Positions 41,481-59,369 of a DNA stretch of 59,369 bases are shown here, piece after piece. The stretch comes from a virus. Its lineage: Duplodnaviria; Caudoviricetes. Positions within the stretch are counted from its first letter, which is position 1, and each line of letters begins with the position of its first letter. Under the pieces are notes generated by a model. The model saw only the letters and a program-made list of their open reading frames with translations. It did not search any database and was not told the DNA's origin. The stretch is taken from the IMG/VR virus record IMGVR_UViG_3300010052_000002, positions 1-59,369 of that record, one strand, 5' to 3'. The position numbers were made by a program, and so were the translations under genes.

Positions 41481-41608
41481 CACCTGAGCAAAAACTGCAG
41501 GTCAGGGCCGACGCATTTCAAGACCAGGAGATTGAGGCGGCACGAGAGTGGTTTCGTGAGAGCGATGCGGCCAGCGTTCTCTCGATTTGGCTGCGTGTCC
41601 GTCTCTGA
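41477..41608 (+). CDS. Small hypothetical protein
   Basis: GTGA coupling and AGGAG RBS; 43 aa. Confidence 0.4.
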   Translation: MTPEQKLQVRADAFQDQEIEAAREWFRESDAASVLSIWLRVRL

Positions 41609-41809
41609 GTGGTTGCGCGGAGTGGCGATCGGAGAGTACCCGCCGCTGTCGGCGCGGGTACGGAAGTCGCTGTCGACTCCGAGGGGGCGCGGTCCCCGGC
41701 CGAAGGCGATGAGACAACCGACCAGCGACGCAGGAGAATGAGACGATGCGTGGCGTCTGGATAAGGATGCGCGGCGGTGTATCAACCGAGTTCGGAGCGC
41801 GGTGAAGCA

Positions 41810-42280
41810 ATGAGCCACAAGCCCGAAAGTTTCGAAGAATTTCTCGCCAAGTTCTTCACCGCCAGTGCGTCCGCGAACCTGACCTTCAACGCCACAGGCA
41901 GTTCGTCTCCGCCAGTGCTTACTCCAGGCGAACTGCTGAAGATTAAAAAGGACTGGGCCAAGAAGTGCGGAGAGCAGCCGTCTTCGTCATTGTGGCTGGA
42001 CGGTTTGCCGAAGTTTGAATGTGTGTCGCCAAAGCCGAAGGACTTCCACTTCTTGGACTGCGTAGGGATGTTGTGCGGAGAGCCGCCCGCCTATTCGCAG
42101 GTCGACGTTGATTTCGACGGGCAGCCGAACCATGCGGTCGTGAAGATCCCCGGCGGCATCGCCATTGTTCGCAAGCTCGACGAGCACCTTGCGTCGCTGC
42201 GTCGGCAGAGGGACGCGGAGTTTGACGAGGGGCTGCGGGAATTGCGGACGGCGATGCGAGGCGGTGTATGGGGCGGGTGA
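41810..42280 (+). CDS. Hypothetical protein
   Basis: ORF in the same-strand array. Confidence 0.6.
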   Translation: MSHKPESFEEFLAKFFTASASANLTFNATGSSSPPVLTPGELLKIKKDWAKKCGEQPSSSLWLDGLPKFECVSPKPKDFHFLDCVGMLCGEPPAYSQVDVDFDGQPNHAVVKIPGGIAIVRKLDEHLASLRRQRDAEFDEGLRELRTAMRGGVWGG

Positions 42281-42313
42281 GGGTGGAGGCGGGGAAACCA
42301 GACTGACGTCGCG

Positions 42314-42347
42314 TTACGAGGCGACGTAATATTACGAGTGGACGTAA
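42314..42347. promoter_or_regulatory. Tandem palindromic operator-like sites TTACG-N6-CGTAA x2
   Basis: TTACGAGGCGACGTAA (42314-42329) and TTACGAGTGGACGTAA (42332-42347). Confidence 0.55.
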
Positions 42348-42357
42348 TGGTTCATGC

Positions 42358-42669
42358 GTGGAGCTAGCCGTGCCAAGGCGGAACAAGGGCGAGTGGTCTC
42401 AAGGGCTCATTGAGCGGTTCCATCGCGAAGAGAAGATTTCGCGTCGCTTGCGGAACAACGGAAAGGCGTCGCACTCTCTCGCGATGCTGGTTGCTGACGA
42501 GATGCACGCAGCCGAGCACGGGATCCACTGTGGCTGCATCCACTGCATTCAGGACACGCCGTTCTGGTTCGACGATGATGGGCCAATCGCCAAACTGTCG
42601 ACCATCGTCGGGGAGTCGTGCATCGACCACTCCGACCCAGTCGGCAGCTATCGCTGGCATCGGAGATGA
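42358..42669 (+). CDS. Hypothetical protein
   Basis: His/Cys cluster HCGCIHC; weak start signals. Confidence 0.4.
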   Translation: MELAVPRRNKGEWSQGLIERFHREEKISRRLRNNGKASHSLAMLVADEMHAAEHGIHCGCIHCIQDTPFWFDDDGPIAKLSTIVGESCIDHSDPVGSYRWHRR

Positions 42670-42670
42670 G

Positions 42671-42856
42671 TCACCCTGACCGCGTCTCGCCCCGGCACGC
42701 TTCGTCGAGGAGCCTCAGTTGCCGCAGGGCAATCTCGTTCTTGCTCTTGCCCTCCTGTCGAGCCAACTGCTCAATCAGCAGTTCGAGACTCCGTGGCAAG
42801 TAGACCGTCATCCGCCGGGTTAGCGTTCCGGCTGGACTCTTCTGGAAGGCTGGCAT
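42671..42856 (-). CDS. Arc/CopG-like ribbon-helix-helix regulator
   Basis: RRMTVYLPRSLELLIEQLARQEGKSKNEI; one of only two credible minus-strand genes. Confidence 0.75.
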   Translation of the reverse strand: MPAFQKSPAGTLTRRMTVYLPRSLELLIEQLARQEGKSKNEIALRQLRLLDEACRGETRSG

Positions 42857-43060
42857 CGCGCGCTGGTCCCTGCGTCGTGTGCGCGGTCCGTGCGCCGATT
42901 GGTCGGGGAAGGATCTCTTGACAACGGCTTCGCACCTTGTCGAAGCCTGCTGGCTGTGTCGGGGGACACATCGGTGCCCGAGCGGCTGGGTTAGCCTCCA
43001 GTCGCCGGGCCTCTCTCCCAATTGTCACGAGTCCGCCAGTCACGTTCAAGGCCGCTTCCG

Positions 43061-43507
43061 ATGTCCGATCGTGTGCAAACTGTCATCGCGTGGCTCACGT
43101 GGGCCGCAAAGATCATCGGAGTAATCCTGACGCTCATCGGCGGCGGTCAGGCGGTCCAGATCGCGTCCTCGCCGGAGGCGTACGGATCGGCCGACAACAT
43201 TGGCACAAGCGGCACGCTGACGGTCGCTGGCATCCTGACGACGTTCCTCGCACCGCTGATTGCGAAGGGCGTGTCGGCGTTTTGGTCATGGAAGCGGGGA
43301 CGCAAGGCGACTCCCGTGCTCGATTACGGCTTTGCCCTCGGGTGTGTCGCGAATCTCCGCGAATACCTGGTTGACGTTCCGGCTGCGACGGCGCCGCTCG
43401 ACACACTGAAGGAGCTGGTCGCGAAGGTTGAAAGCGACCGGATTGACCCTCCCGCCCCAACGCCCGACCCGGCCCCGGCCTCGGTCGTCGCCGTGGGGGT
43501 GAAATGA
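43061..43507 (+). CDS. Two-TM membrane protein (holin candidate)
   Basis: Two hydrophobic helices; first gene of the putative lysis/late block. Confidence 0.6.
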   Translation: MSDRVQTVIAWLTWAAKIIGVILTLIGGGQAVQIASSPEAYGSADNIGTSGTLTVAGILTTFLAPLIAKGVSAFWSWKRGRKATPVLDYGFALGCVANLREYLVDVPAATAPLDTLKELVAKVESDRIDPPAPTPDPAPASVVAVGVK

Positions 43508-43734
43508 GTGGTGCAATCGCCATTTTCGCAGAGTCAGCAAGCTGCACATTCGAATGTGTTTTGTGCGGGTTTCGCCGGATGACGACATCGGCGGTGAATC
43601 GCAAGGGGATTTGCATTCCATGTCGACGTGCTGGCCTGAACACCGAGGCCGACGTGGCGGCACGCACGATGCCGAAGTGCCGTGTGGAGCAGTTTCGGCG
43701 GATGGGGCACGACGAAGGGGACGCCCGCTCATGA
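43504..43734 (+). CDS. Small Zn-finger protein
   Basis: CVLC...CIPC; coupled on both sides. Confidence 0.55.
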   Translation: MSGAIAIFAESASCTFECVLCGFRRMTTSAVNRKGICIPCRRAGLNTEADVAARTMPKCRVEQFRRMGHDEGDARS

Positions 43735-44093
43735 CCCGCCTCGCCCTCCTACTCGCCCTCCTGCTCTGCGGCTGCCTCAAGCCCCGGCCCGTCGACCCGC
43801 CGGCCCCGGAGCCGGACGTGGTTGCTCCGGTTGCTGGAACAGAGATGGACCGCTACTTCGCGGCGTTCCGCACCAACATCGGGCGGGCGCTCGGCGAGAC
43901 GGCTGCAAAGGTTGACGGGCTCAGTGAAGCGGCTGCCCGCGATCTTCTGGCCGCAAAGCTGCTCGATGCCGTTACCCGGTCGCACGGTGAACTGTCGGCC
44001 GCAGACGCGGCCCTGAGTGCCAGCGGCTTCACCACCGAGAAGTTCAAGGCGGTACTGCTTCGCCGTCAGCAGGAGGCGCTCCGTGGTCAATAA
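43731..44093 (+). CDS. Lipoprotein
   Basis: Signal peptide MTRLALLLALLLCG|C, Pro-rich linker, helical body. Confidence 0.7.
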   Translation: MTRLALLLALLLCGCLKPRPVDPPAPEPDVVAPVAGTEMDRYFAAFRTNIGRALGETAAKVDGLSEAAARDLLAAKLLDAVTRSHGELSAADAALSASGFTTEKFKAVLLRRQQEALRGQ

Positions 44094-44871
44094 CTGTCGC
44101 CTGGATCTTGAGGACTACGAGTACCTGGCAGCCCTTCCGCAAGGGACTCCGGACACGTTCGCGTCGTTCGACGCCCCGCCCGAAGTGACTGTTGAGTGGC
44201 ACCGGAATGAAAATCAGGGTGCCTTGGGGTCGTGTAATGGAACGGCGGGAGCCTCATGCCTGGAACGCGCTGCATGGGTGAGGGACCGCCAGAAGGTTCA
44301 GCTTTCCAAGATCTTCGCGTATCTCGGCTCGCAGAAGGTTGGTGGGCTTCTCGGCTACGACCAAGGCAGTCGGCCGACCGACTTCATCAAGCTCGCGATG
44401 AGCACGGGCGTCTGCCCTGAGTCGATGACCGGATACCCGGCCGCGTATCCAAATGGCGTTCAGATCAAGACCTACCTGTCGGCCGCGAACTATGCCGCAG
44501 GCGCCCCGTTCAAGGCTCAATCGGTTTGCGTGTTCCGCAAGGACTCGACGATTGATGAGTTCAAGCAGTTCATTGGGGGTGGCGGTTCGATCCTGTTTGG
44601 CTGCCGCTGGTACAGGATGATTCCGGCCGACCGTGTCGTGCGATCGTATTCACCGCCGGCCACGGCCCGTCTTGGGCACGCGATGTCCATCCTCGGCTAT
44701 CGCCAGAATCTCATCGGCCTGAATTCGCACAACGACGGGGCCTATGAGATCACCGCGAAAGCGCTGGAGCAGTTGCTCCGTTACCCCGGCAACGTATTCG
44801 TCGGCCTGATGGGCAACGAAGGCAAGCCGGTTGACTGGGTCAAGGATTCCCCATGGAACTTCAAAGGATGA
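44083..44871 (+). CDS. Papain-like (C1 family) cysteine peptidase
   Basis: NQGALGSC (oxyanion Gln and catalytic Cys), GHAMSILGY (His), LNSH (Asn); AGGAGG RBS before GTG 44083. Confidence 0.85.
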   Translation: MVNNCRLDLEDYEYLAALPQGTPDTFASFDAPPEVTVEWHRNENQGALGSCNGTAGASCLERAAWVRDRQKVQLSKIFAYLGSQKVGGLLGYDQGSRPTDFIKLAMSTGVCPESMTGYPAAYPNGVQIKTYLSAANYAAGAPFKAQSVCVFRKDSTIDEFKQFIGGGGSILFGCRWYRMIPADRVVRSYSPPATARLGHAMSILGYRQNLIGLNSHNDGAYEITAKALEQLLRYPGNVFVGLMGNEGKPVDWVKDSPWNFKG

Positions 44872-44876
44872 CTGCC

Positions 44877-45572
44877 ATGCGATACTTGCTGTTCCTCGCC
44901 ATGCTCGCCCTGTTCGGCTGCGGCCCCGGTCCGAAGTCTGCGAAAGCTGACGACAAGACCGCCGCGCCGAAGAAGGAAACCTACACCGCGGCCATCCAGC
45001 GTTTCGAGGCGACGGTCTCAGGCTTGTCCGCCACGCTCGGCAACAACAACGCCGAACTGGACGCCGTGAAGGGTGAACTCAGTGCGGTGAAGGCCGACGT
45101 CAACGCCATCAAGGCCGGTGTCGCGGAGATCAAATCGCTGCTGACGGTGGACACGGAGATCTCGGTGGAGGTGCCGAAGGTTGAGTCGCCGCCAGCGGAG
45201 CCGGATGCAGTGACCATCAACGGCAAGTCTGAAAATCTCGCGGCCTTCATCAAAAAGTGGTATCGGCCGAACACCGGGTTCCACGACCCCGACGATGGGC
45301 AGGTGTTGAGCGAGCATCTTGTTAAGCACGGTGTCGCTGCCGAAGACGTGGCGAGGCTGAACTACGCCACGCAGCACGTCCTGCATGTTGCGGTCCACCT
45401 GAGAGAGAAGGCGGAGGGCATCCCTGCCCCAAAGGCCAAGGCGGTTGTTGTGAAAGCCGCGGCCCCGGTTGTGAGCGTTCCGATTCAGAACTGCCCCAAC
45501 GGTCAGTGCCCCAACATCCAACAGTACGGCGTGAAGCAGGGTCGCGCACGGCTGTTCGGGAGGTGGAGGTGA
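44877..45572 (+). CDS. Coiled-coil lipoprotein (spanin-like candidate)
   Basis: MRYLLFLAMLALFG|C, heptad region, C-terminal CPNGQCP. Confidence 0.7.
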   Translation: MRYLLFLAMLALFGCGPGPKSAKADDKTAAPKKETYTAAIQRFEATVSGLSATLGNNNAELDAVKGELSAVKADVNAIKAGVAEIKSLLTVDTEISVEVPKVESPPAEPDAVTINGKSENLAAFIKKWYRPNTGFHDPDDGQVLSEHLVKHGVAAEDVARLNYATQHVLHVAVHLREKAEGIPAPKAKAVVVKAAAPVVSVPIQNCPNGQCPNIQQYGVKQGRARLFGRWR

Positions 45573-45745
45573 TGTCCGCCCGCCGGGAACAGCTCGACAA
45601 GCCAACGTTCAAGGGGCCGAAGCAGCGGAAGCGATGGTCCTACCGTGAGGCGAAAACCGCTTTCAATCGCACCGTGCGACGTGCGGCGAAACGTGATCCT
45701 GAAGACGCTCCCCGCAAACGAGAGTTTCACGGCTGGTACTGGTAG
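45572..45745 (+). CDS. Small basic protein
   Basis: TGATG coupling, GGAGG RBS. Confidence 0.55.
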   Translation: MSARREQLDKPTFKGPKQRKRWSYREAKTAFNRTVRRAAKRDPEDAPRKREFHGWYW

Positions 45746-45806
45746 CCAATGACCACCCCCACCCGCACGCTGACCGCCGCCCGAAGCGACTTCCTGTCGT
45801 GACCTC

Positions 45807-46412
45807 ATGCTCGAACACCTCCTCAGCCTCCCATGCCAGATGCTCGACGCGGGCCGGACCGTTCCGGACTCCGCGTCTGATGGCACGTTCAAGGGGCCGC
45901 TGTGGGACGTGACGCTGCCGAACACGAAGCCGCTCATCCCGTTCATTCTCGACTTCGCCCGGCTGGGGCAGGCGATCAACCTGGACGTCAATGCCCGCCG
46001 CGTCGGGACGGTCCATCTGCGGGAGCAGCCGACGGCCGGGAGCAACGGGCTTCTCGTGCCGTATGAGATGGTCGACCTGTTCGGCGCCATCAAGCGGGAC
46101 GTGCGGTCGATTCCGTTCGTGCACCCCAAGGCGGAATCGCTTCTCAATGGCGATTGGACGACGTTCGGGCCGGTGCAGGTGCGGTTCGACTACTCGTGCA
46201 TCCTGCCGACGGTGACGTACCGCGACGGGAACGCCTTCATCACATGGGCCACGCCACCGACGATTCGCTCGACATCGACGGGATGGCTCGGTGTGCGGCA
46301 GAAGATCACGACGACAACCATCAAGCATTTCCGCATCGGTGAGTTTGATGGCGAGGTTGTGACCACGAGCCGGCTCAAGAACTTCATTCTCCCGGACGTG
46401 AAATGGTCATGA
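45807..46412 (+). CDS. Hypothetical protein
   Basis: 201 aa beta-rich ORF with phage-like codon use. Confidence 0.65.
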   Translation: MLEHLLSLPCQMLDAGRTVPDSASDGTFKGPLWDVTLPNTKPLIPFILDFARLGQAINLDVNARRVGTVHLREQPTAGSNGLLVPYEMVDLFGAIKRDVRSIPFVHPKAESLLNGDWTTFGPVQVRFDYSCILPTVTYRDGNAFITWATPPTIRSTSTGWLGVRQKITTTTIKHFRIGEFDGEVVTTSRLKNFILPDVKWS

Positions 46413-46507
46413 CTCGCCGCCGCCGTTCCGCCCTCATCCTCCTGAGCATCGCCGTCGGGCTGGTGTGTTTGTGGCTGGTTGGGTGTGAGCAGGGAGCGCC
46501 GCTGTGA
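46409..46507 (+). CDS. 32-aa micro-lipoprotein (not in the ORF track)
   Basis: MTRRRRSALILLSIAVGLVCLWLVG|CEQGAPL*; ATGA overlap upstream and TGATG overlap downstream. Confidence 0.6.
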   Translation: MTRRRRSALILLSIAVGLVCLWLVGCEQGAPL

Positions 46508-46983
46508 TGAGAATGCTCGCATGGATCGTCGCAATCGTCGTAGGACAGGTCGCCTTAACGTGGGTGTTCCTGTGGGCGCTGCGCAACACCATGCCAGAGC
46601 CCGGCCAGTTCGAACGTGGAGTGAGCCAAGTGACAGCCGAAAAGCGAACCCTCGGTCAGCACATCCTCGCCCTTGGCTTGAAGCCGAACGAAGAGCTGGT
46701 CTTCGAGATCGATTTCGAGACGGTCAGCGGCTTCAGTGTTACCGCCTTCGACGGCAAGTTCGAACAGACGGTTGGGGCCGGGCCGGAGAGTGCCATTGCC
46801 AGCGACACGAAGGACAAGGCGTTTGAACTGGCCGCGGAAGCCCTGCGGACGGTCCGAATGAGTTCGGCAGCATGGCCGGGCCCTGTGCCGCCTGCGGGGA
46901 CGCCAGAGGCCGCAGCGATGCACGATGCATTGCATGCGGCGCACGAGGCGTACATGCAGGAGCGGAAGGGGGGCGTAGAGTGA
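46504..46983 (+). CDS. Membrane-anchored hypothetical protein
   Basis: N-terminal TM helix. Confidence 0.6.
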   Translation: MMRMLAWIVAIVVGQVALTWVFLWALRNTMPEPGQFERGVSQVTAEKRTLGQHILALGLKPNEELVFEIDFETVSGFSVTAFDGKFEQTVGAGPESAIASDTKDKAFELAAEALRTVRMSSAAWPGPVPPAGTPEAAAMHDALHAAHEAYMQERKGGVE

Positions 46984-47765
46984 TAGGGCCGACCCGAGAA
47001 CAACTTCAGCAGTGGGCGGAGCAAGAGGACGCTGTGGGCGGTCACGTGTCTGTTGGTGGCATGGCTGCCGACTGCGGACAGCCTGTTCGCCCAGCTCTCC
47101 CCCCGTTTTTCATGGTATTCGACGTCGAATCCATCGGCCTTCACGGCGAGGGGTTCGCGGCCGGGTTCGTCGTCATTGACAGTGAGGGCAAGGAGCACGA
47201 GGCGGGCGTTTTCGCCTGTCGCCCAATTGACGCCAGTGGCAGCCAGGAAGACCGGCTGTGGGTCGCGAACAACATCCCCGCACTGGAAGTGACACATGAT
47301 GGCCCAGAAGGCGTCAGGGCGGCGTTCTTCGGCCGCTGGTTGCACTGGAAGGAGCGAGGGGCGGTTCTGGTCGCCGATTGCTGCTGGCCCGTGGAGGCCA
47401 GATTTCTGATTCACTGCATCAACGATCAGCCAGACGAGCGGAAGTGGCAGGGCCCGTACCCGCTGCACGACGTCGCTTCGATGCTCTTGATGGCCGGGCT
47501 CGATCCTGTTGGTTCGTACTGGGAGGAGCAAGACGGCGAGAAACATCACCCGATGTGTGACGCTCGCCAGTCCTCGCGACTGCTGAAGCAAGTGTTGCTT
47601 GTGTCACAAGGTTCGCCGTCCTTTTCCCCATCGCCGCGCTGCCGGCGGTGTGGATTTGATCGAGGAGTCAACGAGCAGGGGTGTTGCCCGGTATGCCACA
47701 CAAAGCCTGCACCGGAAGCGTATGGGCGAATCGAAGTTGGCCAGTCGTATGCGAGGCCGCAATGA
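46980..47765 (+). CDS. DEDDh-like 3'-5' exonuclease with C-terminal Zn ribbon
   Basis: FDVESIG (Exo I), LHDVAS, HHPMCDA (Exo III). Confidence 0.75.
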   Translation: MIGPTREQLQQWAEQEDAVGGHVSVGGMAADCGQPVRPALPPFFMVFDVESIGLHGEGFAAGFVVIDSEGKEHEAGVFACRPIDASGSQEDRLWVANNIPALEVTHDGPEGVRAAFFGRWLHWKERGAVLVADCCWPVEARFLIHCINDQPDERKWQGPYPLHDVASMLLMAGLDPVGSYWEEQDGEKHHPMCDARQSSRLLKQVLLVSQGSPSFSPSPRCRRCGFDRGVNEQGCCPVCHTKPAPEAYGRIEVGQSYARPQ

Positions 47766-48130
47766 CGCCCGAAGAGTTCTTCATCTGGCAGATTCATTTC
47801 GAGCATCTGGCCCGTCCGCAGGTCATCGAGCCGCGCGGCGCGTTCATCCGCCACGAACTGACCAATCCGCCACAGCCCAAGCCGGCAACCGAAGCGGCTC
47901 ACTGGCTCAGCGTCGCGTGGCTTGTCCTGATGCTGTGGCTGCTGATGTCGCTGTTCAGCACGGCCCACGGCGGTGAAGTCGGCCGGGCTCGACGCCTGAC
48001 GCGCATCACTGTGCTGCGGCCCGTGCGAGTGAAGGCCCGTGCGGAGGCGGGCTACCCCCTGCTGTCCACGATGGCGAACACGACGCGTGTGGCGGCGAAT
48101 CTCACGAGTCCACTGTCCTGGTTTTTCTGA
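47762..48130 (+). CDS. Membrane hypothetical protein
   Basis: ATGA coupling; one TM segment. Confidence 0.55.
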   Translation: MTPEEFFIWQIHFEHLARPQVIEPRGAFIRHELTNPPQPKPATEAAHWLSVAWLVLMLWLLMSLFSTAHGGEVGRARRLTRITVLRPVRVKARAEAGYPLLSTMANTTRVAANLTSPLSWFF

Positions 48131-48268
48131 AAACTCAACACCGACCTGCATCGTCGAGATGACCAATGACGTTCTTCGAGACCCTGTATCAGATCGGCGT
48201 GTTCGGATTGGCCATTCTTGTGGCCGTCGTCATTGCTGATAAACGCACCAACCGAATGAGGTCTCGCT

Positions 48269-48559
48269 GTGGACTGGATCGACGGAATTGCACGGCTCGG
48301 GTTCCCTGTGATGGCCTCGGTCGCACTGGCATGGGCGTTCAACGCCTTCATCCAAAGGCGCGAAAAGGAAGCGGCGGATCGCGAAGCGGCATTGATTGCA
48401 TCCCTGGTTAAAGAGCGAGAGTTCAAGGACGGCAAGCTGGTCGAGCTGATCATTGGATACTCCAAGGATCACGACGACACGCTGGAGATGAACAGCCGTG
48501 CCAAGACGCTCTTGGAGGACCTGTTGAGCAGGCGGGGATCATGGCCAGAAAAGTCGTGA
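48269..48559 (+). CDS. Single-TM holin-like protein
   Basis: N-terminal GFPV hydrophobic helix followed by a charged coiled coil (BhlA-like layout). Confidence 0.5.
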   Translation: MDWIDGIARLGFPVMASVALAWAFNAFIQRREKEAADREAALIASLVKEREFKDGKLVELIIGYSKDHDDTLEMNSRAKTLLEDLLSRRGSWPEKS

Positions 48560-48753
48560 AGACGGCCCCGCCACCACGAGCCTGCCAGTCCCCCGCCTAC
48601 GTCCCAACCCCAGCCCAGATCGCAGCCGAGTGCGAGGCCATCAGGGCGGAATGGACGCGGGCGGAACATCGCAGGCGAGAGCACAAGTGCCGTGGCAGGA
48701 TTGAACGCGACGTCAGGGTGTGCCGGTTCGGGGATGAGGTGGAGGAGGTTTGA
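48541..48753 (+). CDS. Hypothetical protein
   Basis: PTPAQIAAECEAIRAEW...E.RRR motif. Confidence 0.6.
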   Translation: MARKVVKTAPPPRACQSPAYVPTPAQIAAECEAIRAEWTRAEHRRREHKCRGRIERDVRVCRFGDEVEEV

Positions 48754-48755
48754 GG

Positions 48756-49538
48756 ATGGAGGGTCCACGCGGTGGTCGCCGTCAGGCATGTGTTGTGTGC
48801 GGCAAGGAATGCAAACCTCGCAGTTATCAAAGGAAGAGGCCGCTGTGTTCGAGGGCGTGCCGGTATCAAGCACGCAATATTCTCTGGAAGCGAACGTGTG
48901 ATTACTGCGGCAAGCAGTATCCCAACCGCGATAAGCGAAATCGATTTTGTGGCGCTGAATGCCGAGGCCGGGTTCGGAAGCAGCGAGGGGAGGAATTGCG
49001 AAGGCGAACGTACTTGGTGTTGTGTGATTGGTGCGGGAAGCAATTGCGGCGTCAGCCATATATCCAGAAGCGAAACGCGGGCAACTACTGCAACGCCCAA
49101 TGTCAAATAAAACGGAGACGGAATGATCGGTACGGTTCACCAGACGGCCCGACACCAGTTGTCCGACGAGTGCGATCAGATTGGGAACAGCTCGCCGACA
49201 GGGCAGCTAGGGCAATTGTGCCCAAAGAACGAGATGAGTGGCGAGATCGGTGTCGTTCAGCAGCAGCATGCTTGCGACACAGAGGAGCAGAGCGTGGACG
49301 ATCGATTCCCGAATCGCGTCGAGAGACATCTTGGGATGCAAGGGCAGAGAAAGAGATCAGACGAATCGTGCTCGGGAGTGAGTGGTCGCGGAAAGGAGAG
49401 TGGGAGCGAATGTGCACCAACCGAGCCAACAACCTGCGAAAGCGAGCTCGCAGGATCAGCCACAAGCGCAGAACTGCTGACCTTGCTCAAGGTTCAGCAG
49501 TTCAGGTGCGCGATGACAGGGGTGGAGATTACGCCTAG
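48756..49538 (+). CDS. Arg-rich protein with three C2-C2 zinc fingers
   Basis: CVVCGK..CSRAC, CDYCGK..CGAEC, CDWCGK..CNAQC. Confidence 0.7.
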   Translation: MEGPRGGRRQACVVCGKECKPRSYQRKRPLCSRACRYQARNILWKRTCDYCGKQYPNRDKRNRFCGAECRGRVRKQRGEELRRRTYLVLCDWCGKQLRRQPYIQKRNAGNYCNAQCQIKRRRNDRYGSPDGPTPVVRRVRSDWEQLADRAARAIVPKERDEWRDRCRSAAACLRHRGAERGRSIPESRRETSWDARAEKEIRRIVLGSEWSRKGEWERMCTNRANNLRKRARRISHKRRTADLAQGSAVQVRDDRGGDYA

Positions 49539-49713
49539 CTCAGCACGCCTAGACCATAAGAGGCCTGCATCTGATGGTGGTGGGCATGGCGTCGACAATC
49601 TGCAGTGGGTGCATGCGATTGTGAATCGAATGAAGGGCACGATGAGCGAGGCAGAGTTCGTGGAATGGTGTCGAAAGGTGGCAAAAAAGCTGGGTCCTTC
49701 CGGCCCCCTGTAA
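49336..49713 (+). CDS. HNH endonuclease (terminase-associated)
   Basis: Q.FRCAMTG...LDH..P.S.GG.H..DNLQWV...VN.MKG; start uncertain; overlaps the upstream ORF. Confidence 0.85.
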   Translation: MQGQRKRSDESCSGVSGRGKESGSECAPTEPTTCESELAGSATSAELLTLLKVQQFRCAMTGVEITPSSARLDHKRPASDGGGHGVDNLQWVHAIVNRMKGTMSEAEFVEWCRKVAKKLGPSGPL

Positions 49714-49745
49714 CCCCAGGCGGGTCGCCGCATCGGGGGTTTTTT
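49713..49745 (+). terminator. Possible intrinsic terminator
   Basis: ACCCC...GGGGT imperfect stem followed by a T run. Confidence 0.4.
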
Positions 49746-50295
49746 GTCAATAAGCAGCGCAAATCCGGTTGTTGTTGAGAGGAGAGCACGCATTGCCAGT
49801 GGAAGACGACGCGAACGAGCCCGCACCACGCGAATCGTCGAGATGGCGGAGTTCGCAGGCGTCTCGGAGCAGGCGCTGCGGGCGTGGATGCGTTTGCCTG
49901 GATTCCCGCGGGCCCCAGACGGCTCGGTATGCCTGTGGGACCTCGCCATCTGGAAGCACCGCTACGACAAGGGCGGTGACGTGTCGGAAGAGATTCCCGA
50001 CGGCGTTGACTCCCCGGCTCTTGAGGAGTTTCGCCGGGCCCGGGCGGAGCAGGAAAAGATCAAGCTGCTTCGGATGCAGGGGGAGTTTGTTTCGCTGGAG
50101 GACGTTCACGCGGCGATGGCGGAAACAGCATCGGTGATGAAGTCCACTGCCGAGCGGATCATGCGAGACGCCGGCAATGATGTTGCGTTGATGCTGAATG
50201 AGGCTTGGGACGAGGTCGAGCGGCGACTGGAGCACCTTTTCAAAGATGGTCGTGGTGGCGGAGAGGACGACAGCTCGAACGGCGCTGCTGAATGA
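49744..50295 (+). CDS. terS: Terminase small subunit (Nu1-like)
   Basis: HTH (MAEFAGVSEQALRAW...GFP), coiled coil, GEFV; start codon uncertain. Confidence 0.8.
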   Translation: MSISSANPVVVERRARIASGRRRERARTTRIVEMAEFAGVSEQALRAWMRLPGFPRAPDGSVCLWDLAIWKHRYDKGGDVSEEIPDGVDSPALEEFRRARAEQEKIKLLRMQGEFVSLEDVHAAMAETASVMKSTAERIMRDAGNDVALMLNEAWDEVERRLEHLFKDGRGGGEDDSSNGAAE

Positions 50296-52228
50296 GTGGC
50301 GCTGGTGGGCGAGGTCGTGTGCGGTTCAGCCACTTAGGGGAATGCGTGCATTCGCTGAGGCCGAGGTTGTCATTCCTGACGGCCCGTTCCAGGGGCGACG
50401 ATTTCGTTGTGACCGCCAGCCGTGGTCCGGCCTGTGGTTCGATGCGATTGACTCTGACAAGTACCAGCGATTCGCGGCGACTGGACCAAGCCAGAGCGGG
50501 AAGACGCTGTCCTGTTACGTGATCCCGACCATGTACCACCTGTTCGAGATCGGAGAAACGGTGGTCTGCGGCGTGCCGAAGATGGACATGGCCCACGACA
50601 AGTGGGAGCAGGATTTCCTGCCGGCCATCCGGGCATCGCGGTTCGCCGACCTGCTGCCGACGAAGGGGCGAGGCTCGCGAGGTGGAACGTTTGATTCGAT
50701 CACGTTTCGGAATGGCGCGACGCTGCGGTTTATGACCGGCGGAGGTGACGACAAGAGCCGTGCTGGGTTTACGTCCCGGGTCGTCGTGGTGACGGAGGTG
50801 GATGGCCTGGATAAGTCGTCAGAGTTGTCCCGCGAGGCCGACCCGATCAAGCAGTTGGAGGCGAGGACGCGGGCCTACGGCAGTCGCCGGCGGATCTACC
50901 TGGAATGCACGGTGTCGACCAAAGACGGTCGCATCTGGCAGGAGTATAGCCAGGGCACGGAATCGAAGATCGTCGCGCCCTGCCCGCACTGTGGCCGATG
51001 GATCACTCCAGAGCGGAAGGACATGCTCGGCTGGGATGGGGCGGTGAGTGAGTTTGAGGCGGAGGAACGAGGACAGTTCTTCTGCCCGCTGGATGGTTGT
51101 GCGGCCGGATTGTCCGAGCAGCAGCGAGTTGAGGCGAATCGGGCGGCGAGGTTGATTCATCGAGGACAGGTGGTCGGTGCGGACGGCGAGGTTGCCGGGG
51201 AGATGCCGCAGACGCGGACGCTGGGCTTTCGGTGGTCGGCGTTCAACAACCTGTTCATCTCGTCGGGGGAGCTTGCGGCGGAGGAGTGGAAATCGTCACG
51301 GGAAGCGGACGAGGAGAACGCGAACCGCGAGCGGAATCAATTCGTGTGGTGTGTTCCGGCCGATGCTGCCGAGCAATCGGTGACGGAGCTCCATCCACGG
51401 GACATCATCCAGCGGCAGGGGGAGTTCGAGCGAGGGGTGCTGCCGACCGGCTGTCAGGCGGTGACGGCGTTCATCGACGTGGGTAAGCACCTGTTGCACT
51501 GGACCGCGAAGGGCTGGTCTCCGGAGCCGTTTGGATACACGGTCGATTACGGAGTGGAGGACGTCTACTCGCGGGAAATGGGCGAGGAAGTGGCGATCCT
51601 GTCGGCGATCCGTAAGTGCATAGAGACCCTGATGGGCGGGTTCCCTCAGGGCGACGTGATGCGGAAGCCGGCCGCGATCCTGGTGGACTCCGGCAACTGG
51701 ACAACGACAGTCTACGCCGCGTGCCTGGAGGCTCGTGCGGCCGGTTATCCGGTGTGGCCGGCAAAGGGGTTCGGAAGCGGCGTGTTCGGCCGCATCAACT
51801 ACTCGAAACCGAGCGGGGTTGGGCAGAAGGTGACGTGGATCGGCGACGGGATGCACGTTGTCCGCGAGACGATTGATGGACGGCGACTGGAGCTCGTCGA
51901 GATCAACGCAGATGAGTGGAAATCCAAGACCCATTCGCGGCTCGAATGCGACAAGTCGAAGCCCGGGGCGATCCTGCTGTTCAAGGCGGATTCGAAAGAG
52001 CACTGGAAGTACTCGCAGCACCTGACCGCAGAAAAGAAAACGGAAGAGTTCGTGGTCGGCAAGGGCTGGCAGACGAAGTGGGCCAAGGTGTCGAAGGCGA
52101 ATCACTGGCTTGATAGCGAGGCTGGTGCGAATGCGGCTGCCGAGTTGATCGGCGTGCGTGTCGTGCAGCTCGTGAAGACCGTGAAGCCGCGAATGAGTTT
52201 GTCCGCAATCCAGGCGTCAAAGCGATGA
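50246..52228 (+). CDS. terL: Terminase large subunit (lambda GpA family)
   Basis: SQSGKT, VTEVD, PCPHCG, IDVG, VDSG, NHWLD. Confidence 0.92.
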   Translation: MVVVAERTTARTALLNEWRWWARSCAVQPLRGMRAFAEAEVVIPDGPFQGRRFRCDRQPWSGLWFDAIDSDKYQRFAATGPSQSGKTLSCYVIPTMYHLFEIGETVVCGVPKMDMAHDKWEQDFLPAIRASRFADLLPTKGRGSRGGTFDSITFRNGATLRFMTGGGDDKSRAGFTSRVVVVTEVDGLDKSSELSREADPIKQLEARTRAYGSRRRIYLECTVSTKDGRIWQEYSQGTESKIVAPCPHCGRWITPERKDMLGWDGAVSEFEAEERGQFFCPLDGCAAGLSEQQRVEANRAARLIHRGQVVGADGEVAGEMPQTRTLGFRWSAFNNLFISSGELAAEEWKSSREADEENANRERNQFVWCVPADAAEQSVTELHPRDIIQRQGEFERGVLPTGCQAVTAFIDVGKHLLHWTAKGWSPEPFGYTVDYGVEDVYSREMGEEVAILSAIRKCIETLMGGFPQGDVMRKPAAILVDSGNWTTTVYAACLEARAAGYPVWPAKGFGSGVFGRINYSKPSGVGQKVTWIGDGMHVVRETIDGRRLELVEINADEWKSKTHSRLECDKSKPGAILLFKADSKEHWKYSQHLTAEKKTEEFVVGKGWQTKWAKVSKANHWLDSEAGANAAAELIGVRVVQLVKTVKPRMSLSAIQASKR

Positions 52229-58984: not shown

Positions 58985-59369
58985 GTGGCCGTCGATCCCG
59001 TCCCCGCCGACTCCTCCGAAGCGCGAGAGCTTTACAACCTCTCGCAGCTTTGTTTGGACAATGCGTGGTTTCGGGCGATCGTCGCGAACCCTGACGCTCA
59101 GTACGCGACTGTGAAGGCGTGGGTGGAGGCCAATGGGGACGACGTCACCATCGGGCGCGACGAGGCGGCCGCGAAGATCGGCTGGCTTGTCGTCGACGAA
59201 CAACTGCACCCGGAAGACGAGAGCAGCGAGCCGCCGCGAATCATCATTGACCACGAACTCGACGACCAATCGGCGGAGCGTAACGGCGGCGACGACTGGA
59301 CGCAGAGATGCAACCTGGTCGTCGAGTTCGAACTGTGGATTCCTGAGTGCTACCGGAAGTCCGCGAGCC
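58985..59369 (+). CDS. N-terminal part of putative tail terminator/completion protein (runs off the window end)
   Basis: GTG immediately after the upstream TAG; open for 128 codons (MAVDPVPADSS...CYRKSAS). Confidence 0.7.
   Translation, partial: MAVDPVPADSSEARELYNLSQLCLDNAWFRAIVANPDAQYATVKAWVEANGDDVTIGRDEAAAKIGWLVVDEQLHPEDESSEPPRIIIDHELDDQSAERNGGDDWTQRCNLVVEFELWIPECYRKSAS

Follow-up and report, generated by a model that had tools for sequence, protein, structure and literature searches.

Positions 43,061 to 45,572 of IMG/VR record IMGVR_UViG_3300010052_000002, which comes from an uncultured tailed phage (Caudoviricetes) whose host is probably a member of the Planctomycetes, contain five tightly coupled plus-strand open reading frames (ORFs). 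These encode, in order, a protein with two transmembrane (TM) segments (P1), a doubtful zinc-ribbon product, a lipoprotein (P2), a cysteine peptidase that lacks a signal peptide, and a coiled-coil lipoprotein (P4) (Table 1). The record was analyzed over all of its 59,369 nucleotides, and this whole stretch is referred to here as the window. An initial annotation had read the block as a putative lysis module in which a papain-like cysteine peptidase and lipoproteins take the place of a classical endolysin. The four ORFs named there (P1, P2, the peptidase, and P4) are all present on the plus strand in the ORF listing, and their products are identical to public gene calls in the protein collection. 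They had been described as overlapping in series, which is true of the translational overlaps along the block but not of P1 and P2, which are 224 nt apart, the gap being filled by a 76-amino-acid (aa) ORF. This possible zinc-ribbon ORF had been overlooked, as had a divergent ribbon-helix-helix (RHH) gene upstream. The GC content of the cassette resembles that of its surroundings.

Table 1. Features of the cassette and of the adjoining upstream region (positions in the window)
Feature	Position	Strand	Basis and remarks
RHH-like ORF, 46 aa, MTVYLPRSLELL...	42671..42811	-	ORF listing and DNA reading; divergent, outside the cassette proper
Divergent intergenic region, 249 bp	42812..43060		Presumed start of the transcription unit (inferred)
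P1, 148 aa, two predicted TM segments	43061..43507	+	Hydropathy heuristic; product in collection
Possible zinc-ribbon ORF, 76 aa (CVLC...CIPC)	43504..43734	+	ATGA overlaps with P1 and P2
P2, 120 aa, predicted lipoprotein (LLLCGC)	43731..44093	+	ORF listing; product in collection
Xylellain-type papain-fold cysteine peptidase, 262 aa	44083..44871	+	GTG start with AGGAGG upstream; homologues; AF2 model; Foldseek
P4, 234 aa, predicted lipoprotein (LFGC)	44868..45572	+	Alignment, AF2 model, ATGA overlap; alternative ATG at 44877

The peptidase ORF had been given as 44017-44871. The GTG at 44083 is the most likely start, because an AGGAGG lies 7 nt upstream of it; this start overlaps the end of P2 and would give the 262-aa product P0001. 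A Pfam scan of the ORF gave no match at E ≤ 1, a six-frame search of the whole record with PF00112 gave nothing at E ≤ 10, and the best PHROG match was a weak "peptidase" family (E = 0.018). As a single sequence, the protein matched xylellain (PDB 3OIS) at E = 3.4e-9. We found 35 homologues and aligned 34 of them, leaving out P0024 (a 173-aa fragment). Q45, C51, H199, S215, and D218 do not vary in this alignment, N214 is conserved in at least 90% of the sequences, and the catalytic residues align with QGRIGSC, GGHA, and NSW of 3OIS. The 34-sequence profile recovered 3OIS from the PDB at E = 1.2e-23 and nothing else at E ≤ 0.01. An AlphaFold2 (AF2) model of the peptidase, with a predicted local distance difference test score (pLDDT) of 92.2, also had 3OIS as its top Foldseek match (E = 5.5e-17; probability, 1.00; 253 aligned columns of the 262-residue model; about 22% identity), followed by cathepsins S/K/L, papain, and Der p 1, for which the probability is likewise 1.00. 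When the profile was run against 1.84 billion representatives, 68 matched at E ≤ 1e-30, 817 at E ≤ 1e-10, and 4,595 at E ≤ 0.001. The relatives P0061, P0062, P0064, P0068, and P0106 (profile E ≤ 1e-31) pass PF00112 with E values of 3.7e-8 to 2.8e-13. Alignment and modeled fold together identify the protein as a divergent xylellain-type C1 (papain-fold) enzyme with predicted peptidase activity. The initial description of a C1 peptidase with intact Q/C/H/N residues is thus sustained by the fold, the catalytic residues, and the PDB profile, although the window protein itself misses PF00112. The protein carries no signal peptide, and an N-terminal TM segment was found in none of the 131 short representatives.

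Two other readings were considered and rejected. A CHAP or NlpC/P60 identity was set aside, as the fold search ranks C1 enzymes first and the CHAP (PF05257) and NlpC/P60 (PF00877) models found no match in the window at E ≤ 0.01. A role in head maturation was set aside in view of the separate S78 prohead protease in the window.

Three representatives of 640 to 688 aa (i.e., P0086, P0097, and P0122) are interrupted by an intein, which consists of a Hint domain and a LAGLIDADG homing endonuclease. The intein lies directly before the catalytic Cys (...GS / intein / CQG...), which would be the +1 splicing residue in these homologues. Inteins typically occupy conserved sites of important genes.

Related loci were collected with the alignment as the query; a single-protein query gave one weak locus. 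The alignment-based scan of viral contigs yielded 244 stretches encoding relatives, 80 of which were retained. A scan of one genome per species added nine loci, eight of them in Gemmataceae, Planctomycetaceae, or Bythopirellula bins and one in a Hyphomonadaceae bin, and the Planctomycetota bin loci keep the gene order of the phage cassette. A tblastn search of the peptidase against 50,697 GenBank phage records gave no match at E ≤ 1e-3. With a simple ORF caller, a peptidase ORF was recovered in 74 of 82 sequences, and the 74 group into 34 clusters at 70% identity. An N-terminal anchor or lipobox is carried by the gene directly downstream (+1) in 16 of 34 clusters (binomial p = 8e-8), by the gene directly upstream (-1) in 12 of 33 (p = 8e-5), and by the gene at position -2 in 9 of 32 (p = 0.005), against 54 of 513 background ORFs lying more than three genes from the peptidase; the lineages behind the clusters are not independent of one another, and membrane segments were called heuristically. 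These counts are conservative because two true lipoproteins, window P2 and the +1 gene of the relative G003, were missed through wrong start calls. The cassette is also found in genomes of 157 to 205 kb. The comparison supports the view that the block is a conserved envelope-directed cassette of Planctomycetes-associated phages. Conservation of the cluster in related phages, named in the initial annotation as a check, is borne out by the 244 viral stretches, an upstream partner family present at 43 loci, and the enrichment of exported neighbors.

That upstream partner belongs to a single family whose members start with an anchor or lipobox and have, after a Pro-rich linker, a helical body of about 90 aa; it lies next to or close upstream of the peptidase in the 43 loci and occurs in five Planctomycetota bin loci as well. 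In the window, P2 occupies this slot and has the same architecture, with the N-terminus MTRLALLLALLLCGC followed by a Pro-rich linker and then a helical body. Its score against the profile hidden Markov model (HMM) of the upstream family is 2.9 bits, and hhalign gives a probability of 15% (E 0.0017) for an alignment that keeps the anchor, the Pro-rich stretch, and the helical part in register. A jackhmmer search from P2 gave no match except P2 itself.

The downstream partners share redox-type features. CGPC or CxPC motifs occur in the +1 partners of eight clusters, and Pfam thioredoxin families were found at E < 1e-4 in four of nine scanned +1 partners (L015, L054, L056, and G003), three of which reach the Thioredoxin cut-off, while the Thioredoxin_2 match of L056 falls just below its own. 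A second motif, CPxGxC, is present in 10 of 34 +1 proteins versus 2 of 891 other ORFs, a contrast to be read with the motif having been defined on the same data; either dithiol motif is present in 18 of 34 downstream partners. In G003, the +1 gene (L093:6905-8662; contig positions 46905-48662) encodes a lipoprotein with a Thioredoxin domain (WCGPC; E = 1.2e-7) and a C-terminal Trypsin_2 domain (E = 7.3e-34), which by this family match is a second, trypsin-like serine protease.

P4 has relatives at eleven loci, the window included. Its ATG at 44868 overlaps the peptidase stop as ATGA, and translation from the ATG at 44877 would begin with MRY..., as it does in homologues. The AF2 model (pLDDT 70.8) contains a 56-residue helix at residues 39 to 94 that corresponds to the coiled coil, and there is no C-terminal TM domain. 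A small domain with HLxxH and HxxxH follows, and the C-terminal tail carries CPxGxC and ends in RLFGRWR. The HLxxH(G) and HxxxH motifs (window 45300-45410; P4 residues ~150-177) are invariant in 12 P4-family proteins, as is CPxGxC in the P4-like proteins, and the four conserved His residues suggest a metal site. The thioredoxin-type partners of L054 and L002 show both His motifs as well. P4 has no Pfam thioredoxin match and no CxxC motif; Foldseek gave no PDB match at E ≤ 0.001, and the ESM Atlas gave no usable feature match, its structure rows reaching only TM < 0.4. A predicted complex of the peptidase with P4 residues 125-234 scored 0.00, which is uninformative either way. Taken across the loci, the motifs and family matches point away from a classical spanin and toward an exported protein of thiol-redox or dithiol-motif type as the downstream partner. 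In the L019-L043 group, free-standing ORFs of 61 to 69 aa with a signal-like start, CPxGxC, and a basic RLF tail (L031:8810-8995, L022:8816-9025, L043:7154-7342, and L029:8810-9013) resemble the P4 tail CPNGQCP...RARLFGRWR (window 45330-45572); their products could serve as a redox loop, as a docking or pseudo-substrate motif, or as a membrane-active peptide.

In 5 of the 149 best representatives (P0061, P0062, P0064, P0068, and P0106; 466 to 524 aa), the peptidase is preceded in the same chain by a TM anchor at the N-terminus, a long linker rich in Pro and Asp, and a helical region of about 150 aa, and basic residues lie before the anchor in four of the five. The architecture recalls that of the separate upstream partner, a likeness of architecture only, since the upstream-family HMM gave no match to the N-terminal parts of the fused proteins. 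These anchored fusions predict a periplasmic location for the enzyme domain. Because both constant partners are exported, dithiol partners are recurrent, and some forms are membrane anchored, the peptidase most likely acts outside the cytoplasm. A thioredoxin or dithiol partner would make sense for a thiol enzyme in an oxidizing compartment or for disulfide-linked substrates. One further representative, P0105, is a single chain of peptidase, TM segment, and CPPC protein, and could be either a genuine fusion or the result of a one-base error where two genes overlap.

Two side observations concern the wider set of loci. At L089:7833-8709, on a 4.0-Mb contig from a Planctomycetaceae bin, two overlapping ORFs make up a split peptidase beside an upstream-family lipoprotein and a CAPC protein, and the locus resembles a prophage copy in decay. 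Also recurrent, within 1 to 2.5 kb of the peptidase in several loci (e.g., L022:9010-9192, L045:3736-3945, L048:8831-9073, L054:5748-6107, and L062:1557-2045) and about 6.5 kb away in L033-L040, is a family of small single-pass membrane proteins that carry C-(E/Q)-x-D-R-x-x-L after the TM segment.

The record is linear, with a CheckV completeness of 77%, and its plus strand carries nearly all ORFs that have a strong signal in GC content at third codon positions (GC3). Truncated ORFs occur at both ends (1-193 and 58985-59369), and no continuous frame links them, so that the record is either a fragment or a circle that was broken; the break lies inside the head-tail genes, and part of the genome is missing. 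We scanned 71 ORFs outside the cassette and four cassette ORFs against Pfam. The 34 ORFs of 194-28847 matched 17 families, including D12 methylase, CsrA, AAA_24, GNAT, Phage_integrase, and Laminin_G_3. The best 25 of 32 families for the 37 ORFs of 28962-58984 include a RecD-like helicase, DUF5906/D5 primase, and DUF5131, together with late genes (i.e., a gpA-type terminase, a lambda-family portal, an S78 prohead protease, and capsid and cement proteins). PHROGs were consistent with Pfam, yielding an integrase, a primase, a "major head and protease protein," a portal, and a terminase among the best 25 of 37 and best 25 of 49 families. Many window ORFs have no family assignment in Pfam, PHROGs, or PDB sequence searches; for ORFs 45807-46412, 46504-46983, and 46872-47765, the PDB search gave nothing better than E = 0.04. 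A megablast search of 43000-46000 against GenBank phages gave no match, and the nearest cultured-phage terminases are only about 24% identical to that of the window.

No peptidoglycan hydrolase was found among the scanned ORFs at E ≤ 0.01 (for 28962-58984, among the best 25 of 32 families), a six-frame search with thirteen lysin families found nothing in the window, and no lysis family was among the PHROG matches listed (best 25 of 37 and best 25 of 49). The initial statement that no endolysin could be recognized holds over Pfam on ORFs, the thirteen families in six frames, and the best PHROG matches, and the HMM search for lysins proposed at that time found no conventional endolysin in the window. 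A complete relative, G003 (54,888 bp, with a 123-bp terminal repeat), likewise has no peptidoglycan hydrolase family in any of its 81 ORFs at a Pfam E ≤ 1e-4. As it shares four proteins with the window and is not syntenic with it, G003 is an independent complete genome and no guide to the missing part of the window.

Seven lysin families were then searched in 26 records of at least 40 kb. Eight records gave matches above the cut-off, and each of them has a distant peptidase homologue; the families are Phage_lysozyme in G020; SLT in G011, G014, G017, and G025; GH19 in G018, G022, and G025; and GH108 in G024. Three of the canonical-lysin matches fall in proteins of 2,391 to 4,698 aa. Dividing the records into close and distant clades at a peptidase family-profile E < 1e-30 (L050, with no called peptidase ORF, was left out) places canonical lysins in 0 of 15 close-clade versus 7 of 10 distant-clade records (Fisher p = 2.5e-4), a comparison that is descriptive, the threshold being post hoc and the records related. 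Six further lysin families are absent from all five close-clade records searched, four of them at least 92% complete. Among the neighbors of intermediate and distant homologues (121 ORFs), no lysis family was listed except in L078 (PHROGs, best 25 of 71). In this Mu-like provirus, a distant homologue lies downstream of GemA and Mor, and the genes directly after it encode a GH108 endolysin (Pfam E = 5.7e-14; PHROG "endolysin," 8e-20) and a coiled-coil protein with a TM segment. At other loci, the neighbors of distant homologues are heterogeneous (transposases, methylases, RecA, and queuosine genes), and these homologues co-occur with canonical lysins. Because those neighbors are unrelated, the link to lysis is, on this gene-context evidence, a property of the close clade and of L078 and not of the fold.

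The position of the cassette speaks for a role in lysis. The coupled gene string that it heads ends 4.6 kb upstream of ORF 50198-52228, which is assigned as the large terminase by its size and by tblastn matches to annotated terminases. The placement at the start of the late region, as initially described, is confirmed in that the cassette follows a divergent intergenic region and lies upstream of the gpA-type terminase and the lambda-type portal. In lambda, the S-R-Rz genes head the late operon, upstream of the terminase genes. Between cassette and terminase lie three small ORFs with one predicted TM segment each (46504-46983, 47681-48130, and 48269-48559), one of them (96 aa) with an N-terminal TM segment and a helical tail, and all may belong to the lysis region. 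On the other side, the 46-aa divergent ORF is a possible RHH protein and candidate regulator, an assignment made by eye, and its exact product is not in the protein collection. The intergenic DNA contains TTGACA at 42918-42923 and the inverted repeat GGCTTCG-N8-CGAAGCC at 42926-42947, and 42671-43060 may comprise a regulator gene and an operator for the cassette and the late operon. A consensus promoter scan of 41500-50500 found 0 sigma-70-like sites, and terminator-like sites in the region scan were no more frequent than in shuffles. A search for sequencing runs that cover 42600-46500 listed one DNA run, probably the source, and no RNA run.

P1 has an acidic loop between its two hydrophobic segments and a basic stretch, KRGRK, after the second. 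By heuristic hydropathy, its predicted topology is N-in, C-in, which is holin-like in architecture; its cluster in the protein collection has two members. The likeness to a holin-lysin-spanin series drawn in the initial annotation is one of architecture, as P1, P2, and P4 have no holin or spanin match in Pfam or PHROGs. The 76-aa CxxC...CxxC ORF is possibly a real gene: its GC3 is 0.65, versus 0.58 in the other frames and 0.74 to 0.80 in the neighboring genes, its product is not in the protein collection, and tblastn gave no match in 81 loci.

We consider it rather likely, on this comparative evidence, that 43061-45572 is a protease-based lysis cassette typical of Planctomycetes-associated phages. 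For the lysis-module reading of the initial annotation, this means that the conserved envelope-directed cassette, its place at the head of the late region, and the genomes without a recognizable endolysin speak in its favor, while the holin and spanin identities are left without a family match. In the sequence of events that we propose, the signal-less xylellain-type peptidase would accumulate in the cytoplasm until P1, to judge from its architecture, permeabilizes the inner membrane and lets it reach the periplasm. There it would work with two lipoproteins exported beforehand: P2, as the putative counterpart of the conserved upstream partner, and P4, as that of the thioredoxin/CPxGxC downstream partner. 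These partners would probably dock the enzyme at the envelope and keep the catalytic thiol, or disulfide-linked substrates, reduced. The peptidase would then cut envelope protein components or peptide links, and the cell would burst.

A bolder proposal, which we regard as possible but doubtful, is that, in phages of Planctomycetes, a protease and thiol-redox system has taken over from the muralytic endolysin, dismantles a protein-rich, possibly disulfide-linked envelope layer, and is sufficient for lysis. The peptidase would be released into the periplasm or anchored there and act with the exported thioredoxin or CPxGxC partner, and in some phages the second, trypsin-like protease would join it. 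According to a 2025 review, the planctomycete envelope was long described as protein dominated, and peptidoglycan was shown later (PMC12673574). For the idea that the planctomycete wall is rich in cystine, we found no paper that combines all the terms searched.

Several points weigh against reading the block as a lysis cassette. We know of no C1 peptidase that is a peptidoglycan hydrolase. The papain-like, wall-directed phage lysins named in the accessible part of one survey are NlpC/P60, CHAP, Amidase_5, and PeiW/PeiP only (PMC10318531). The TM and lipobox calls are our own simple heuristics, P1, P2, and P4 lack a holin or spanin family match, and neither HMM nor hhalign detectably places P2 in the conserved upstream family. 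A lysin could lie in the missing part of the record, which is only about 77% complete and has cut ends. Because distant homologues have varied contexts and coexist with canonical lysins, the peptidase fold is not specific to lysis, and the post hoc close/distant split is descriptive. The L019-L043 group has its cassette embedded in the structural module, flanked by head-completion genes and tail genes. Finally, Planctomycetes do have peptidoglycan (PMC4432640), so a muralytic step may still be needed.

This last point leads to the rival that we take most seriously and still regard as unlikely, namely, that the cassette joins lysis as an accessory while an unrecognized muralytic enzyme elsewhere cleaves the peptidoglycan. 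The peptidase would then cut envelope proteins (e.g., outer-membrane tethers or a protein layer) or act in the maturation of a membrane-active partner. L078, where a homologue stands beside a GH108 endolysin and a spanin-like protein and does not replace them, provides an example of such an arrangement, and the many window ORFs without a family assignment leave room for the enzyme; as a speculation, the basic RLF-type tails of the +1 proteins could be membrane active. However, known muralytic families are found in none of the 15 close-clade records and none of the 81 ORFs of the complete relative, and the six further lysin families are missing from all five close-clade records searched. Complementarity with canonical lysins, clade by clade, is what replacement predicts and addition does not. 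The same complementarity would be unexpected for an exclusion system, which bears on a quite improbable alternative in which the cassette has a non-lytic, envelope-directed function, remodeling or destroying surface proteins as in superinfection exclusion or receptor destruction. Lipoproteins encoded beside structural genes can serve exclusion, and Llp of phage T5 is such a phage lipoprotein; the cassette of the L019-L043 group is set within the structural module, and the window phage is temperate-like, with an integrase family among its ORFs. Set against these features are the absence of a signal peptide in 131 of 131 short representatives, such that membrane permeabilization is needed for the enzyme to reach its exported partners, the occurrence of the cassette in 157- to 205-kb genomes as well, and, in the window, translational coupling, a late-region position, and a GC content like that of the surroundings.

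It is very improbable that the enzyme is a cytoplasmic protease that processes phage or host proteins, with the membrane-protein genes as mere neighbors. Such a function would suit a protein without a signal peptide whose distant family members occur in varied genomic contexts, but it would not account for the strong enrichment of exported neighbors on both sides, the recurrent exported thioredoxin/dithiol partners, or the fused forms with an N-terminal membrane anchor, and a separate prohead protease is present.

The favored reading, a protease-based lysis cassette, can be placed among known systems. Like the lambda cassette, the block begins with a small two-TM protein, continues with a signal-less enzyme, has exported lipoprotein and coiled-coil proteins alongside, is tightly coupled, and lies upstream of a gpA-type terminase and a lambda-family portal. 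It departs from the lambda arrangement in its enzyme, a C1 papain-fold peptidase instead of a muramidase, transglycosylase, or amidase; in its lipoproteins, which lie on both sides of the enzyme and not behind it; in the redox-type Cys motifs of the downstream partner; and in giving no match to a holin or spanin family. The retention of lysis-cassette logic with a change in enzyme chemistry is, on balance, what we think is new here. Xylellain of Xylella fastidiosa (3OIS), a short bacterial C1A enzyme, is the best match in sequence and fold, and both proteins have an N-terminal extension before the catalytic domain, which in the window enzyme contains a conserved Cys5 within NNCRLDLED; the window enzyme differs in its low identity (~22%), in being phage borne, and in its fixed cassette with exported partners. 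The pseudomurein endoisopeptidases PeiW and PeiP are a precedent for a cysteine-peptidase lysin directed against an atypical wall. Together with CHAP, NlpC/P60, and Amidase_5, they resemble the window enzyme in being phage cysteine peptidases and cut wall peptide links (PMC10318531), whereas the window enzyme belongs to a different family. Cwp84 of Clostridioides difficile shares the C1A fold (Foldseek rank 24; E = 8.3e-10). It acts on a surface-layer protein but, unlike the window peptidase, does housekeeping work for the host, is made with a signal peptide and additional domains, and is encoded outside any phage lysis block. Thiol-regulated signal-arrest-release (SAR) endolysins, such as Lyz of phage P1, are precedents for lysis enzymes controlled by thiol-disulfide chemistry in the periplasm or by a signal anchor. 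Mycobacteriophage LysB is a precedent for added enzymes matched to unusual envelope layers (PMC6116114). Lyz of phage P1 and LysB are muramidases or esterases, whereas here a separate exported thioredoxin/dithiol protein accompanies a cysteine protease, and an anchor is present in only 5 of 149 representatives.

In our literature search, we found no C1 peptidase in a phage lysis role and no described lysis genes of Planctomycetota phages. Xylellain-type C1A peptidases have been acquired by Myoviridae and Siphoviridae, with no phage function assigned in the accessible part of that report (PMC10380794), and the 2025 review of Planctomycetota mentions "phage" once in its available portion (PMC12673574). 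Almost nothing is in print on how Planctomycetota phages work, and the planctomycete envelope has long been debated. If the bolder proposal is true, lysis by a protease and thiol-redox chemistry would be a mode described for no phage. A cassette of this kind in genomes where no muralytic enzyme is recognized would give a testable handle on which envelope layer holds planctomycete cells together and a new enzyme class for opening cells that are resistant to peptidoglycan-directed agents, and a finding of "no lysis genes" in such phage genomes need not imply non-lytic release.

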